This document shows positions 4,127 through 52,436 of a stretch of DNA of 64,000 bases, in pieces. The notes beneath the pieces are model-generated. The model worked only from the letters and a program-made list of their open reading frames with translations, ran no database searches and was not told where the DNA came from. Where the stretch lies: assembly GCF_053078305.1 (NCBI RefSeq), contig NZ_CP166879.1; one strand, given 5' to 3'. How positions within the stretch are numbered: the first letter of the stretch is position 1; the number at the start of each line of letters is the position of its first letter. Made by a program: the position numbers and the translations under genes.

Positions 4127-4894
4127 ATGCGACATCCTTTAGTGATGGGTAACTGGAAACTGAACGGCAGCCGCCACATGGTTCACGAGCTGGTTTCTAA
4201 CCTGCGTAAAGAGCTGGCAGGTGTTGCTGGCTGTGCGGTTGCAATCGCACCACCGGAAATGTACATCGATATGGCGAAGCGTGAAGCTGAAGGCAGCCAC
4301 ATCATGCTGGGTGCGCAAAACGTGGACCTGAACCTGTCCGGCGCATTCACCGGTGAAACCTCTGCTGCTATGCTGAAAGACATCGGCGCACAGTACATCA
4401 TCATCGGCCACTCTGAACGTCGTACTTACCACAAAGAGTCTGACGAACTGATCGCGAAAAAATTCGCGGTGCTGAAAGAGCAGGGCCTGACTCCGGTTCT
4501 GTGCATCGGTGAAACCGAAGCTGAAAACGAAGCGGGCAAAACTGAAGAAGTTTGCGCACGTCAGATCGACGCGGTACTGAAAACTCAGGGTGCTGCGGCA
4601 TTCGAAGGTGCGGTTATCGCTTACGAACCTGTATGGGCAATCGGTACTGGCAAATCTGCAACTCCGGCTCAGGCACAGGCTGTTCACAAATTCATCCGTG
4701 ACCACATCGCTAAAGTTGACGCTAACATCGCTGAACAAGTGATCATTCAGTACGGCGGCTCTGTAAACGCGTCTAACGCTGCAGAACTGTTTGCTCAGCC
4801 AGACATCGACGGCGCGCTGGTTGGCGGTGCGTCTCTGAAAGCTGACGCTTTCGCAGTAATCGTTAAAGCTGCAGAAGCGGCTAAACAGGCTTAA
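4127..4894 (+). CDS. tpiA: Triosephosphate isomerase
   Basis: 255-aa ORF recognised as TpiA. Confidence 0.97.
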
Positions 4895-4948: not shown

Positions 4949-5704
4949 TTAACGCAAAATCTCACACTGATGATCCTGAATTTCCTCGGCTGAAGCACGG
5001 TTAAGCGTCAGTAGATTTCGTTGTGTCGCCAGCAATACAAATGAGTTATCACTCTGCCGTACCATCGCCAGCCCGTAGCTTCCCATATGTTCCCGCGCCT
5101 CAGGTACTTCTTCTGCCAGCATCATAAATGGGCTGCGTTGTACCAGTTCGCTTTCCGTTACCCGACGCGCCAGGTATTCATGCCCGCGCAAACCACCTGG
5201 CAGTGGCAACCAGCGGCTGCTGATGTTCGCCAGATTGTTATCCAGTTGTTCGCGCACATCAGGACGAATACAAGAGATATGAATATGAAAATGGTTTTGC
5301 GTACGCCCGGTGCGGGAGTTGATCGCCAAAGAAACCGCGCGATCGGGAACCGGCTGACCGTATTTTTTGCTCATAAAATCACGCGCCTGCCAGGCCAACC
5401 AAAAGAAGTTCGGCGTTGAAGGATCGGTCAACAAAGGACTTTCAGTTCCGTTAATACGATACGTTGGCATCAACAGATATTGCAGTGGGCCATTAAGATC
5501 TTTTAAAACCACGTATCCGGCATTGGGTTTGACTTCCGCACATGGCGAAGGATTTTGATTTTGCTGCTGATTGGGCAAACATTCCTCAAGGACAATCTTA
5601 CGTAATGTATCCGACTCTTCACCGGTTAATTTCCAGTAACCAATACCGGCAGCCACAACGGCGATAACTATCATCACCAAAAAAAGAAGACCCGCTTTTT
5701 TCAT
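4949..5704 (-). CDS. cdh: CDP-diacylglycerol pyrophosphatase
   Basis: Track ORF is 315 aa; trimmed to internal ATG (MKKAGLLF...) giving the 251-aa Cdh with N-terminal membrane anchor. Confidence 0.9.
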
Positions 5705-5810
5705 CTTTTTTTCCCTGTACCTCAAAGAGATGCAAGGGTAACGCAAAATCGTGACAAATAAAAAACCCGGTCGCGAGAAACCACCGGGTTTGATAATTAT
5801 CCTGGAGAAA

Positions 5811-6800
5811 TCAGCGTTTGCTGATCTGATCGAACGTACCGCCGTTAGCAAAATGCTCTTTTTGCGCTTTCGTCCAGCCGCCGAACTCTTCATCAATGGT
5901 GAATAACTTCAGCTTTGGAAACGCATTTTCGTACTTTTTCGCCACCTCAGCGTCGCGCGGACGGTAGTAGTTTTTCGCGGCAATTTCCTGACCTTCTGGC
6001 GAGTAGAGATATTTCAGGTAGGCTTCCGCCACCTCTTTAGTACCTTTTTTCTCGACCACTTTATCGACCACCGACACGGTTGGCTCTGCGAGGATAGACT
6101 CACTCGGCGTGACGATTTCGAATTTATCTTTCCCCAGTTCATTCGCTGCCAGCAGAGCTTCGTTTTCCCAGGCAATCAGTACATCGCCAATTCCGCGCTC
6201 GACAAAAGTGTTAGTGGAGCCACGCGCGCCAGAATCCAGAACTTCGACGTTTTTATACAGTGCCCGAACAAAATCCTGTGCTTTTGCCTGATCGTTGTTG
6301 TTGTGATGCAGCGCGTAGCCCCAGGCAGCCAGGTAATTCCAGCGCGCGCCACCAGAGCTTTTCGGATTAGGCGTGATCACTGAAACACCCGGTTTAATCA
6401 GATCGTTCCAGTCATGGATCTGCTTCGGATTTCCCTTACGTACCAGGAAAACAATGGTGGAAGTGTACGGTGCGGAGTTATCCGGCAGACGTTTGATCCA
6501 CTCTTTATCAATCCGCCCGCGTTCCGCAATTGCGTCCACGTCATAGGCCAGAGCCAGCGTGACAACATCAGCTTCAATACCGTTGATTACCGACGTCGCT
6601 TGTTTACCTGAACCACCGTGTGACTGACGAATCACCACGTTATCACCAGTTTGCTGTTTCCAGTGGGCGCTGAATGCCTTGTTGTACTGTTCGTACAATT
6701 CGCGCGTTGGATCATATGAAACGTTAAGAAGCTGAATATCCTTTGCCATAACGCTGGTTGTCGCCAGCAAAAATGTTAACCCTACGCCCCACTTGTTCAT
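5811..6800 (-). CDS. sbp: Sulfate/thiosulfate periplasmic binding protein
   Basis: 329-aa ORF with signal peptide, recognised as Sbp. Confidence 0.93.
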
Positions 6801-47705: not shown

Positions 47706-48716
47706 TCATTCCGGCGCAAATTGCAGCATGACCTTTATGGAGTCATTTTGCTGCGCGCGTTCGAATGCCGCCGCTGCATCCTCAATGGCAAATAAATCGG
47801 TAACCAGTTCACTGGTATCAAACCGCCCATCCGCCAGCCATTCGATAACAGCATCGAAATCTTCAGGGATGTACATGCCAGAGTTGAGCAAGTCACGCTC
47901 GAAACGTTGCATCATCGGTAATGGTATTTCACGCGGCCCACTTGGTACGCCCATGCACACGACGGTGCCTCCGGCATATACACGGGTACATGCATCGTTA
48001 AGCGTGGCCTGCGCTGCAACGACATCAATCGCCCCCGTAAATCGCACATCTGCGGCCAGCTCACCTGGTGCCCAAACTTCTGCTGCGCCCAGCTTTAACG
48101 CCAGCGCGCGTTTGGCAGCGTCAGGTTCAATCACGGTAATCTTACCTGCCCCCATAATGCGCAGTGCCTGCACGATGGATAAGCCTATCGTTCCGGCACC
48201 AATCACCAGTACGCTTTCCAGAGAAGCTTTCGGCATTCGGTTAACGCAGTGACGGGCACAAGCCGCCGGTTCGGCAAAGGCCAACACTTTTAGCGGTAAA
48301 GAGGCTGGTGCGACATGGCAATTACGCGCAGGAACAATGTGTTGTGAGCGAGCAAAGCCCGGTGCGCGAAAACCAGCAACCTGCGGTGGTTCACAAAGAT
48401 TAAAACGTCCTGCTTTGCAGGCTCGGCATTCCATGCAAGCCATGATGGGATCGACCACAACATGATCGCCCGGCTGTACATTTTTAACGTCGCTGCCAAC
48501 TTCCGTAACGCGCGCTGCAATTTAATGACCGGGGACGACAGGTGGTTTGGCAAACGGATGACCGCCTTTCAGAACATGCAGATCCGAACCGCATATCCCA
48601 TGGAACACAGGCGCAATCCGCACTTCGTGCGGTTTAAGTTCCTGGTGTGGTACTTCAACATATTGAGTGGTGACTTTCCCAATATCTGAAAATAAAACCT
48701 GGGTAATTTTATCCAT
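47706..48716 (-). pseudogene. Zn-dependent alcohol/polyol dehydrogenase (MDR family) interrupted by in-frame TAA
   Basis: N-terminal 64 codons (..PVVPGH) then TAA at 48522..48524, then the same frame continues IAARVTEVG...CMECRACKAGRFNLC (structural-zinc Cys cluster); stop sits where the GHE motif Glu is expected. Confidence 0.7.
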
Positions 48717-48748
48717 TGTTATTCTCCAGAATCGATATCCATAGGGGA

Positions 48749-49636
48749 TTAGCGTTGCGCGATACCTTCATCGACAATTTCTGCCAACCGTTGTAAACGA
48801 GGAACAGAGACATCGCGCAGCATAATTTGTGGATCTTGTGCACCAACAACCGACGCCCAAACCGCTCGTCCAGCCAGGAAGCCTGACGCACCACCTTTCA
48901 TGGCAATACTTACTGCACGGCCAAAAATATCGGCATCAACGCCAGAAGAAAGAATTACCCACGGCATCTTCATCTGATCGTTAAGTTGCTGACAGGCGGC
49001 AAGTAAGGTTTTTTCATCGCCTTTGCCCCCTAATGGCATCTCGGCTTTGTAAAGATCAGCCTCTGTTCCACCAAGCTCTGCGGCGGCGGCAACAATGGCG
49101 CTTTCACGATCAAAGTCCCAACCGCGACGAGGTGGACGCACCACAGGTTCAATAATGCTAACCAGCCCGGCACTACGGCAGCGACGAACAAATTTATCAA
49201 CCATTGCCAGACGTTCCTCTGCGGGTTCATCTTCACGCCAGAGTACAAGTAATTTCATTGCCTTAGCCCCCATTTCACGGGCTTTATGCGGGTCGACGGA
49301 CATATCTATTTCAACGCTATCAACCGGGATGCCATTACCTGGGATAAAAAGATCGGCAGCGACAATCAGGCCGCAAGAATTAGCAACAGCGCCCTGCTCG
49401 ACTATTTGCTCAAGACAAAATTGTTTATCCGCCAGAACGGCAGAAGCATAAGGAGAAAGGATTCGGGTCGCGGCAACTTTAAAATCGGTGAGTACACTGT
49501 CGGCGATGGGTTTTGGCTGCCCTGCTGCCGCAAACATCAAGCGCATGGCCTCACGCTGATCGACAGCTAACATGGCAAATCCACCACCTGGGCGGGAGAT
49601 ATCTTTCAGCGTAAATGGGGTGAAGTGGGATGACAT
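48749..49636 (-). CDS. yihT: Class I sugar-phosphate aldolase (LacD/YihT-like)
   Basis: 295-aa ORF with AMLAVDQR motif; orthology to K-12 yihT inferred, not confirmed. Confidence 0.7.
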
Positions 49637-49660
49637 AGAAACTCCTGTTAATAGATAAAA

Positions 49661-50539
49661 TTAAAGACCAGCCTGCTGGCGAACCTGATTTAGCAGGGCA
49701 CTCCAGTCCTGCCGCCCTTTGCCGTCTTGACTTGCTGCAGCGTAATAACTTTCTGCTGCAATCCCCATATTGAGCGGTGCCCCCGTCTCCCGAGCGACGT
49801 CAACTGCAATACGCAGATCTTTCAACGCCAGATCCACCATGAAGGCGGGTGAAAGATCGCCTTTCAGCACTTTGCCAGGCCAGGTGGTCGTAAAATGTCC
49901 TTTCCCTGCTGCCGTACCACTCATCACCTTAATTGCGACATCAAGATTTAATCCCAGTGACTCACATAACACAGCGGCCTCGGAGGACAGCGCATTAAGC
50001 GCAATGCTCATATAGTTGTTAATTAGCTTCACGCGGATCCCCATTCCAGGGCCGCCAGCCTCGACCAGCTCATTACCCATGCACATGAGAATCGGGCGTG
50101 CACGTGCAATCTGCTCATCAGTGCCACCCGCTAAAATCAGCAATGTGCCATCAATCGCATTCACGGACGTTCTGCCCACGGGGGCGTCCATCATACTGAT
50201 GCCTTTTTCTTGTAACTCCCGTATTAATGCATCGGTCTGTAAGGGATGAATAGTCGACATATCAATCAATAACGCGTCAGATGAAACAGCCTCACAGACG
50301 CCTTTTTCCCCCAACAGAACCTGTCGAACAATGTCACCATTGGGAAGCATAGTGATGATAAATTCAGCGCCTGCTGCTGCTTCCGCTGGGGTTTGTGCCG
50401 CAGTGGCCCCCTGCGTAACTAGCGCATCGACGGCCAGTGCATTGACATCAAATACCTGCAATGAATGCCCTTTATGCAATAGATTGTTAGCCATTGGGCT
50501 ACCCATCTGCCCCAGCCCGAGAAATGCAATGGTTGCCAT
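49661..50539 (-). CDS. yihU: 3-hydroxyisobutyrate dehydrogenase-family reductase (YihU-like)
   Basis: 292 aa from [13 protein letters not shown] (Rossmann GxGxxG); track ORF has a 67-codon upstream extension. Confidence 0.7.
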
Positions 50540-50711
50540 GAATACTCTCCTGTCTGACATTGACAAAATAATGACAATTGAAAATTCGTTTTCGTCTGTT
50601 TTTGAGCATATTTGTAATTTATGTTCAAAAACACGACATACATCACTAATTTGATCATTTGTGTCATTTAAATTGACCAAAGACGACAAAATTAAACAGG
50701 ACAAGACAAAT

Positions 50712-51608
50712 ATGACCAGAATTGCATGCGTGGGTATCACAGTTCAGGACAGGATTTATTCTTTGCCCACTCTGCCGGAGGGCGGCGGGAAATATCAGGC
50801 AAATCATTATCTTGAGATTGGTGGCGGCCCGGCAGCAACAGCCGCTGTTGCAATCGCAAGGCTTGGCGTGGAAGTTGATTTCATCGGTCGCGTCGGCGAT
50901 GACAGTTGTGGAAATACCTTACTTGCAGAACTTGAGGGTTGGGGCGTCAATACAGCATTTTGCCGCCGATATCCTAACGCCCGTTCGTCGCAATCAGCGA
51001 TCCTCGTTGATCAGCATGGCGAACGGATTATCGTTAATTATCCAAGTCCTGATCTCGGTACTGATGCCGAATGGTTAGAAGCGATCGATTTCTCTCGTTA
51101 TGATCTGATTCTGGCCGATGTTCGCTGGCATAGCGGTACTGAAAAAGCATTCTCGCTAGCGCGCCTTGCGGGTGTGACAACGCTTTTAGACGCCGATATG
51201 ACACCGCAGGATATTTCTCCACTTGTCGCGCTTGCCGATCACGCCGTGTTCTCAACGCCAGGGCTGAAACGCATGACTGGCCTGCAGTCACCTGAAGAAG
51301 GTTTGTTCCAGGCAACGACACAAACAGCAGGTAAAGTGTATGTTACGCTGGGTTCTGAAGGATCGTTGTGGATTGAAGATGGTCATTTGTGTCAACAGGA
51401 GGCATTTTCTGTCAATGTGGTTGATACCACTGGAGCAGGCGATGTTTTTCACGGCGCACTCGCGGTAGCGTTGGCAGAAAAAATGCCAACAAAAGAGGCT
51501 ATTCGTTTTGCCAGTGCGGTTGCCGCGATGAAATGTACCCAGCCTGGCGGTCGGGCCGGCATTCCTAATCGTGAGCAAACCGAATCATTTTTGTCACTTT
51601 ATGCGTAA
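50712..51608 (+). CDS. yihV: pfkB-family sugar kinase (YihV-like sulfofructose kinase family)
   Basis: 298 aa from [24 protein letters not shown] ribokinase-family motif. Confidence 0.8.
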
Positions 51609-51647
51609 AATGGTAAACATCTACCGAGGAGGGGCAAGGGAGTATTC

Positions 51648-52436
51648 ATGAGTATCATCGAAGTGACAGGTAATCCACGCCATGACCAACTCGTTCATCT
51701 AATCGCAGAACGCGGTTATATGAATATTGAAGAACTGGCACAACTGCTGGATGTTTCAACGCAAACCGTGCGCCGGGATATCCGAAAACTCAGTGAGCAG
51801 GGCTTGATCACCCGTCATCATGGAGGGGCCGGGCGCGTCTCCAGCGTCATGAATACCGCTTTTGAGCAACGGGAACTTTCGCTCACCGCCGAGAAACGGG
51901 CGATCGCTGAGGCAGTCGCCGATTACCTTCCCGAACGCTGTACCGTCTTTATCACCATCGGTACAACCGTAGAAGCCGTTGCCAGGGCATTACTCAACCG
52001 GCGTGATTTACGCATTATCACTAACAGCCTACGTGTGGCACAGATTCTTTATAAGAATCAGGATATTGAAGTGATGGTGCCGGGAGGCACTTTACGCGCT
52101 CATAACGGCGGGATTATCGGCCCAGGAGCCGTGGATTTTATTGAAGGCTTCCGCGCAGATTATTTAATCACCAGTATAGGTGCCATTGAACATGACGGCA
52201 CCCTACTGGAATTTGATGTAAATGAAGCGTTAGTCGCGAGAACGATGATTAAACATGCGCGGAATACATTGTTAGTGGCCGATCATACGAAGTTTGCCGC
52301 GTCTGCTGCCGTTTCAATTGGCAATGCACGGAATGTCAGGGCTTTTTTTACTGATGCCCCGCCTCCCAATTCTTTCTGCCAGTTGTTAAGTGAAGAGAAT
52401 GTTGAACTGGTGGTTGCCGAGCAGGAAGTTTCCTGA
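51648..52436 (+). CDS. yihW: DeoR-family transcriptional regulator (YihW/CsqR-like)
   Basis: 261-aa ORF; N-terminal HTH, C-terminal DeoR sugar-binding domain. Confidence 0.8.
   Translation: MSIIEVTGNPRHDQLVHLIAERGYMNIEELAQLLDVSTQTVRRDIRKLSEQGLITRHHGGAGRVSSVMNTAFEQRELSLTAEKRAIAEAVADYLPERCTVFITIGTTVEAVARALLNRRDLRIITNSLRVAQILYKNQDIEVMVPGGTLRAHNGGIIGPGAVDFIEGFRADYLITSIGAIEHDGTLLEFDVNEALVARTMIKHARNTLLVADHTKFAASAAVSIGNARNVRAFFTDAPPPNSFCQLLSEENVELVVAEQEVS

Follow-up and report, generated by a model that had tools for sequence, protein, structure and literature searches.

Among DeoR-family regulators, GlpR of the E. coli glp regulon recognizes multiple 10-bp half-sites, set in tandem arrays as well as in palindromes; the protein binds them as a tetramer and with cooperativity, and represses from sites overlapping its promoters. 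The GlpR consensus, WATGTTCGWT, occurs in inverted pairs. For AgaR, UlaR and DeoR, short iterated boxes are spread across a divergent spacer, and the oligomeric repressors bind them cooperatively or with looping.

For the sulfoquinovose cassette of E. coli K-12, PMC8006165 and PMC8249747 cite gSELEX, EMSA and AFM work that established binding of the regulator CsqR (YihW) to the spacer between yihU and yihV. According to the same two papers, which cite Shimada 2019, CsqR also binds upstream of its own gene and represses both regions, is released by sulfoquinovose and related sugars, and binds with high cooperativity, with polymeric complexes seen in gels and by AFM. A second type of E. coli yih cassette, named "short" by Kaznadzey et al. 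2025, is carried by Nissle 1917 and many pathogenic strains (PMC12608037). In EMSA, YihW of Nissle 1917 and YihW of K-12 each bound the yihU/V spacer of either cassette type, and yihV/W fragments were bound as well (PMC12608037). The high-molecular-weight cooperative complexes that form at the spacer in EMSA are released by sulfoquinovose. Nissle YihW bound more weakly at 37 °C and the Nissle 1917 short cassette was not induced by sulfoquinovose in vivo (PMC12608037), which counts against the repressor model proposed below for the short allele. Earlier publications already describe the regulator, its binding to the spacer and the divergent arrangement of the operons. The published EMSA on the spacer is without base-level resolution (PMC12608037, PMC8006165), and a base-level operator map of either allele was not found in the accessible literature, a set that excluded the primary 2019 CsqR paper.

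The window analyzed here is a stretch of DNA of 64,000 nucleotides, and its positions 50540-50711 are the exact 172-bp spacer from the start codon of a yihU-like gene (complement of 50537-50539) to the ATG of a yihV-like gene at 50712. The features of the locus are collected in Table 1. The yihU-like product scored 576 bits against NCBIfam NF012005 (cutoff 348) and was 72% identical to K-12 YihU, and the gene call agreed with the RefSeq annotation at an identical locus. The yihV-like kinase was 68% identical to K-12 YihV. The regulator was 72% identical to K-12 CsqR; residues 33-60, containing the helix-turn-helix, were identical, as were 53 of the first 60 residues when counted from the alignment. 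These gene matches and the helix-turn-helix identity supported the reading given in a first-pass annotation of this DNA, in which the region was described as a divergent yihU-like/yihV-like spacer with an adjacent YihW/CsqR-like regulator of the DeoR family.

The cassette in the window is the short (alternative, B2-type) yih cassette of E. coli. The window allele was 100% identical to that of E. coli strain D8 over 371 bp, and its spacer differed from the ATCC 25922 allele at 50639-50640 only. Of 5426 complete E. coli genomes, 1326 (24%) carried the short-cassette allele, in every case with at least 97.7% identity over 261 bp. Genes for a Zn-dehydrogenase, two MFS transporters and an epimerase stand in place of K-12 yihS, R, Q, P, O and ompL. 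Because the Zn-dehydrogenase and two MFS transporter genes were syntenic in at least five genera, with the aldose epimerase completing the E. coli cluster, the short cassette looks like a distinct cluster and not like a truncation.

Table 1. Features of the yihU/V spacer and its surroundings, in window coordinates.
Feature	Position	Strand	Remark
yihU-like gene, sulfolactaldehyde 3-reductase equivalog	49661..50539	-	Leftward operon, gene 1
yihU Shine-Dalgarno, AGGAG on the minus strand	50547..50551	-	Read from sequence
Left cluster: TGTCT 50551, TGACA 50561, TGACA 50572	50551..50577		Candidate auxiliary YihW boxes, yihU leader
Imperfect palindrome, 46 bp, CGTCT-N5-TGAGC-N15-GTTCA-N6-CGACA	50593..50638		Proposed primary YihW/CsqR operator
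GACA-N4-TCAC element, homologue of K-12 TTGACAGCCGTCAC	50635..50646		Possible degenerate CRP site or repressor box pair
TGATC-N5-TGTCA box pair just upstream of yihV -10	50652..50666	+	Candidate operator overlapping promoter spacer
Predicted yihV -10 hexamer TTAAAT	50668..50673	+	Same offset as K-12 TAAAAT
TGACC-N5-CGACA (minus strand TGTCG-N5-GGTCA)	50674..50688	-	Possible box pair across predicted yihV start
yihV Shine-Dalgarno AGGA	50698..50701	+	10 nt before ATG
yihV-like PfkB sugar kinase gene	50712..51608	+	Ribokinase-family matches
Conserved block TCATTTTTGTCACTTTATGCGTAAAAT	51585..51611	+	yihV 3' end and start of yihV-regulator spacer
DeoR-family regulator gene, YihW/CsqR-like	51648..52436	+	NCBIfam DeoR/GlpR matches

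Two repeat clusters had been flagged in the spacer, at 50551-50580 and 50661-50711, and both strings were present at exactly these coordinates. Word counts in the spacer were compared with those in 5000 dinucleotide-preserving shuffles. On the plus strand, GACA was observed 7 times versus 1.75 expected, and GAC was observed in the spacer 9 times versus 3.0 expected; each of these counts was reached in 0 of the 5000 shuffles. GACAA occurred 5 times on the plus strand (50562, 50573, 50685, 50700 and 50705) versus 0.74 expected (P = 0.0002). With both strands counted, TGACA or TGTCA occurred 4 times versus 1.45 expected (P = 0.04), with TGACA at 50555, 50561 and 50572. Boxes within one mismatch of TGWCA, a definition that was picked after inspecting the data, numbered 12 in the spacer versus 5.4 in shuffles (P = 0.003). 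The pair TGWCA-N5-TGWCA showed no enrichment across the 64-kb window (6 matches versus 6.3 expected) and is not diagnostic when taken alone. Against shuffles keeping mononucleotide content only, the 10-bp periodicity of the boxes was weak in the window spacer (p = 0.09) and stronger in K-12 (p = 0.04) and in the diverged orthologues L011 (p = 0.013) and L004, L039, L066 and L065 (each p ≤ 0.005).

A repeat search of the spacer returned a direct family (AAACACGACA, AAAGACGACA and AAACAGGACA), two copies of GACAAAAT, and a number of inverted pairs, the strongest of which has 14-nt arms, 93% complementary, at 50597-50610 and 50620-50633, between the two clusters; this pair was absent from the earlier description of the region. 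No tandem array or iterons were detected by Tandem Repeats Finder at a minimum score of 30, and the Rfam covariance models gave only two matches, both below threshold and both with snoRNA families of eukaryotes (E = 0.18 and 0.57).

The regulator protein was scanned against one genome per species, which yielded 79 loci in Enterobacterales, nearly all with yihU divergent from yihV and the regulator gene. The window-type group (regulator 81-100% identical) comprised Escherichia, Citrobacter, Phytobacter, Trabulsiella and Erwinia typographi and supplied 9 distinct usable yihU/V spacers (83-100%), while 64 distinct spacers came from the K-12-type group (regulator about 68-76% identical); these orthologous spacers are related and are not independent samples. 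When the window and K-12 spacers were aligned, the centre, GTCTGTTTTTGAnCnTATTTGTAATTTATnnTCAAAAA, was nearly identical and the flanks were diverged, the K-12 allele being only about 79% identical to the window over the aligned spacer. Conservation among the 9 window-type spacers had its maxima at 50586-50632 and 50643-50673, and core-anchored profiles gave the same picture for the window-type and K-12-type groups. The strongest conservation was found between and beside the repeat clusters, and included the central palindrome as well as the block 50643-50673. Conservation alone is no proof of repressor contact, since the conserved core must also hold the divergent promoters.

As judged from sequence, the central palindrome is most likely the primary YihW/CsqR operator. 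Its inner arms, TGTTTTTGAGCATA (50597-50610) and TATGTTCAAAAACA (50620-50633), are complementary at 13 of 14 positions, and 0.2% of shuffles contained a palindrome as good (P about 0.002). Across the 64-kb window, the half-site TTTTTGANCATA occurs exactly at two places only, which both belong to the palindrome and are in opposite orientation. Outer GTC and GAC triplets extend the inverted repeat to the 46-bp element. The palindrome was near-invariant in window-type and in K-12-type spacers. Palindromy was kept in all window-type spacers (9-13 of 14 positions) and was weaker in the K-12-type spacers (mostly 9-10 of 14).

The palindrome was also compared with a K-12 ChIP-exo data set, in whose supplementary file several peaks match what we take to be U00096.2 gene positions. 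One dominant YihW peak, with a signal/noise of 168, was reported at 4071641-4071681 in these older coordinates (PMC8464067). The peak was placed by means of the K-12 yihV start and its U00096.2 coordinate (PMC5816610), a conversion that is perhaps off by one base, and corresponds to -122 to -82 from the K-12 yihV ATG, or K-12 spacer positions 46-86 (ATGCTTTGCTTGTCTGTTTTTGATCGTATTTGTAATTTATC). This segment aligned with near identity to approximately 50585-50622 of the window. It covers the left arm and the centre of the palindrome, not the right arm, and both repeat clusters lie outside the aligned segment.

In the first-pass annotation the repeats themselves had been proposed as candidate binding sites of the adjacent regulator, to be doubted if protection were seen elsewhere or if the repeats were not conserved in orthologous loci. 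This proposal held up only in part. The spacer type is bound in published EMSA, but the conserved core and the K-12 peak lie between the clusters. When the orthologous spacers were checked, the left cluster was partially conserved, with a positional match to a pair of boxes in K-12-type spacers, and the right cluster was mostly variable. Since the best-conserved DNA and the K-12 peak are situated between the clusters or at their inner edge, the two grounds for doubt both apply to some extent: the K-12 peak is central, and the repeats are partly conserved.

The left cluster is plausible as an auxiliary operator. Its boxes are spaced 10 and 11 bp apart, at offsets of -58, -48 and -37 relative to the core anchor; the extra TGACA at 50555 is out of phase and, among the 9 window-type orthologues, was specific to Escherichia. 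The cluster was kept as TGA..AAA..ACAA in 8 to 9 of the 9 window-type spacers; a full TGACA was present in 2 to 5 of the 9, according to which box is considered. The yihU Shine-Dalgarno region, CTCTCCTG, was invariant in all 9. In K-12-type spacers, TGTCA was found at the fixed offsets -49 (42 of 64) and -39 (31 of 64) amid diverged surroundings, with a few more TGTCA boxes at -60 to -56 from the core. Two TGACA boxes of the window lie within 1-2 bp of the offsets of this TGTCA-N5-TGTCA pair. TGACA and TGTCA are reverse complements of each other that differ at a single base, and TGACA-AAATAA-TGACA in the window resembles an inverted copy of the K-12-type pair that is one base longer.

The right cluster, we infer, is made up of a conserved TGTCA (50662-66), the yihV -10 hexamer, the predicted start, a 32-nt leader, and AGGA with its spacer. 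The major yihV start of K-12 was mapped by primer extension at -25/-27, with TAAAAT 7 nt upstream (PMC5816610). Window-type spacers have T(T/A)AAAT at the offset that TAAAAT has in K-12 relative to the core anchor (+59 to +64), and from the mapped K-12 start the yihV start of the window allele is predicted near 50680. Consensus scans for sigma-70 promoters, with -35 and -10 hexamers 16-18 nt apart, and for terminators returned none at threshold in the window or K-12 spacer, which is consistent with activator-dependent promoters. CAGGA was conserved in 8 of 9 window-type orthologues, the GGACA and AGACA words at 50699-50708 are sequence of the ribosome-binding site and its spacer, and 3 of the 7 GACA words fall in the predicted 32-nt leader. 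Across the 9 window-type spacers, GAC at 50685-87 and the Shine-Dalgarno sequence were kept and the remainder of the cluster varied; in K-12-type spacers the right-cluster repeats are without counterpart. A reading of this cluster as a riboswitch or RNA leader was dropped, as the predicted leader is only ~32 nt long and has no Rfam match.

Two possible box pairs flank the -10 hexamer. The upstream pair is inside a block, TCACTAATTTGATCATTTrTGTCATTaAAAT, that is nearly invariant in the window type. Pairs were scored with a matrix built solely from K-12-type TGTCA-N5-TGTCA pairs; the second-best score in the spacer was at 50650-50670 (5.1, close to the 95th percentile of the maxima in shuffles) and the best match was at 50670-50690 on the minus strand (11.3 versus 9.0 for the 99th percentile of shuffle maxima). 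Over the downstream pair, window-type orthologues keep TGAnC-N5-(A/C)GACA. Further upstream, both GACA and TCAC of the GACA-N4-TCAC element were conserved in both spacer types. By way of the K-12 start (PMC5816610), the centre of this element would lie about -41.5 from the yihV start, a class II CRP spacing that we regard as a lead. In a CRP scan, the K-12 homologue of 50632-47 had 3 mismatches and the window copy 4 (manual count), and the CRP consensus scan across orthologues gave 3-mismatch sites only, at inconsistent positions.

The conserved block at the yihV 3' end probably serves the regulator gene as promoter and as autoregulatory operator. Within it, TCATTTTTGTCACTTTA and TAAAAT were invariant in 9 of 9 window-type loci, and the upstream codons vary. 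The block resembles the box pair upstream of the yihV -10 hexamer, which matches AATCATTTTTGTCAC from the regulator upstream region at 14 of 16 positions. When shared 16-mers were sought between the spacer and the regulator upstream region, only K-12 (15/16) beat the shuffles, and the 14/16 match of the window equalled the best shuffle and is a hint at best.

We consider it fairly probable that YihW first occupies the central palindrome and from there covers both promoters by cooperative spreading along phased boxes, with the left cluster as an auxiliary site and the right cluster mainly promoter and leader. In the mechanism that we propose, the two inverted arms of the palindrome, each with two boxes about 10 bp apart, would receive the first repressor. 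Repressor would then spread onto weaker TGWCA-like boxes, ~10-11 bp apart, on both sides, and would occlude the leftward yihU promoter and the rightward yihV promoter until released by the effector. The left cluster would be a phased box triple in the yihU leader, and probably an auxiliary site. The right cluster would be mainly the yihV -10, start, leader and ribosome-binding site, with the two possible box pairs (50652-66 and 50674-88) on either side of the -10. The boxes contacted, the start sites of the window allele and the spreading mechanism are all inferred.

A more extended version may be put forward tentatively. The whole spacer, between and including the ribosome-binding sites of yihU and yihV, might be a single filament-type operator, in which palindromic nucleation is followed by polymerization of the repressor over ~12 TGWCA-like boxes, one every 10-11 bp. 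The short cassette might then be no mere truncated sulfoquinovose locus, but a distinct cross-genus catabolic cluster (epimerase, two MFS transporters, Zn-dehydrogenase, aldolase, reductase, kinase and regulator), in which the flanking boxes have been re-oriented and a box pair has been added at the yihV -10.

The repeats could instead be by-products of promoter and leader composition, that is, of -35-like TTGACA hexamers in an AT-rich spacer dense in promoters and of A/C-rich unstructured leader and ribosome-binding regions of yihV and yihU. TTGACA (50560-65) is indeed the sigma-70 -35 consensus, but no sigma-70 consensus promoter employs these hexamers. Many yihU starts were mapped in K-12, from -15 to -92 (PMC5816610), the flanks are only moderately conserved, and the GACA words in the predicted yihV leader include those of the Shine-Dalgarno region. 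Composition does not predict, however, that boxes would be present at ~2x the level of shuffles and with 10-bp phasing in diverged orthologues, and the K-12-type TGTCA pair holds its fixed offsets while its surroundings have diverged. We regard composition as a rather unlikely explanation of the repeats.

A role of the two GACA/TGACA clusters (50551-50580 and 50661-50711) as the main operators of YihW/CsqR appears decidedly improbable. Iterated boxes are typical of DeoR-family operators such as those of GlpR, AgaR and DeoR, and the enrichment of GACA and GACAA is real. The position of the left cluster at the conserved TGTCA-N5-TGTCA pair of the K-12 type and the best pair-matrix match at 50670-50690 also speak for such a role. 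The clusters are nevertheless the less conserved parts of the window-type spacers, with TGACA at 50555 unique to Escherichia, and GACAA at 50700 and 50705 overlaps the Shine-Dalgarno sequence and its spacer. The right repeats are absent from the K-12 type, although the two regulators share their recognition region and cross-bind, and the in vivo peak in K-12 is over the spacer centre.

It is highly unlikely that TGACAAAATAATGACA of the left cluster (50561-50576) is a CRP site for the yihU and/or yihV promoter and not a YihW site: it has 3 mismatches to TGTGA-N6-TCACA and is the sole 16-mer of the spacer within 3, CRP binding to the K-12 yihU/V spacer has been published (in a text without the site position), and most window-type orthologues retain the TG...CA ends, but a match with three mismatches means little in DNA so rich in A and T, the G and C positions that matter most in a CRP half-site vary between orthologues, the K-12-type TGTCA repeats at the same position are direct and not inverted, and it is the other CRP-like element (50635-46) that holds class II spacing to the predicted yihV start.

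Nucleation on the palindrome with spreading over phased boxes adds to the published system a base-level hypothesis, consisting of a conserved palindromic core and phased flanking boxes; for parts of the flagged repeats, an identity as promoter, leader or ribosome-binding sequence is the likelier one. The failure of sulfoquinovose to act on the short cassette in Nissle 1917, and in many extraintestinal pathogenic E. coli, might become easier to understand with this operator hypothesis, which could also guide the design of reporters or biosensors. A more interesting neighbouring question is the actual role, substrate and inducer of the short cassette.

In comparison with known systems, the arrays of AgaR, UlaR and DeoR are alike in their iterated-box layout, which is an analogy to be taken as a lead, and differ in box sequence. 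GlpR was the closest named NCBIfam match for the window regulator. The GlpR consensus is unlike the window sequences, and the inner arms of the palindrome are 9 bp apart, not abutting. Relative to K-12, the window type has an extra TGATC-N5-TGTCA beside the yihV -10. The K-12 flank carries TGTCA-N5-TGTCA with a T-rich spacer, whereas the window flank carries TGACA-N6-TGACA with an A-rich spacer, like a reverse complement, and the Nissle short cassette, unlike that of K-12, is uninduced by sulfoquinovose in vivo (PMC12608037). The K-12 sulfoquinovose (sulfo-EMP) cassette resembles the window cassette in having a yihU-type operon divergent from a yihV-type kinase followed by a DeoR regulator, in the central ~45 bp of the spacer, which is homologous and nearly identical, and in the binding of both YihW proteins to both spacers (PMC12608037).

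The published "short yihTUVW cassette" was found to belong to a larger cluster in the window, whose two divergent arms are listed in the table below. The order MFS-MFS-dehydrogenase-aldolase-reductase / kinase-regulator is kept elsewhere, with proteins 73-99% identical, in eight orthologous loci (L003-L006, L008-L010, L039) from Citrobacter, Phytobacter, Trabulsiella, Erwinia typographi and an Enterobacter sp.; this comparison of gene order spans the MFS genes to the regulator gene, as the compared flanks end short of the epimerase. The cluster looks like a distinct catabolic locus, rather than a sulfoquinovose locus cut down. The Zn-dependent dehydrogenase gene is probably a pseudogene in the window strain, because codon 65 is a premature stop (TAA, minus strand, window 48522-48524) where strain D8 has Glu (GAA), the sole difference there being C-to-A at 48524.

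Features of the short-cassette cluster and of the K-12 locus.
Feature	Position	Strand or content
Cluster, one arm	within window 43878-52436	aldose 1-epimerase, two MFS transporters, Zn-dependent dehydrogenase, aldolase, yihU-like reductase
Cluster, divergent arm	within window 43878-52436	kinase, regulator
Zn-dependent alcohol dehydrogenase gene	window 47706-48716	minus strand
Block TCATTTTTGTCACTTTATGCGTAAAAT	window 51585-51611	spans final kinase codons and spacer 5' of regulator gene
K-12 copies of TGTCACTTTTTGT	L001 3594-3606 and about 4618-4630

Within the block upstream of the regulator gene, TCATTTTTGTCACTTTA and TAAAAT were identical in all nine window-type loci, and the neighbouring codons differed. 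The block is probably the promoter and autoregulatory site of the regulator gene itself. In K-12, which carries the long sulfoquinovose cassette, exact copies of a 13-mer (TGTCACTTTTTGT) occur in the yihU/V spacer and in the csqR upstream region. The top 16-mer match between these two regions was 15/16, whereas none of 20 shuffles gave more than 12, and the 13-mer may represent the CsqR box of the long cassette.

Variant arrangements were also observed. Two loci (L007, Enterobacteriaceae UBA5654, 5696-6000; L078, Citrobacter sp. NCU1, 5294-6000) have lost the kinase gene, and therefore the reductase gene directly faces the regulator gene; both retain the conserved spacer core (TTTTGATCATATTTGTAAT...) and the TCACTAAT element. 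The yihU/V spacers of three Serratia and Hafnia loci (L074, L013, L072) have grown to 276-351 bp by kinase-side insertions; one of these spacers carries a run of CAAATAAA/CAATAAA-type repeats, and the core is unaltered.

The closest paralogue of CsqR is GlpR, which regulates glpA. An overlap between the DNA specificities of YihW/CsqR and GlpR is hinted at, since a YihW peak adjoins this GlpR target. Detected by ChIP-exo in K-12 besides the yih site, this weaker peak lies directly upstream of glpA, with a signal/noise of 13.7 (PMC8464067, supplementary file 5).
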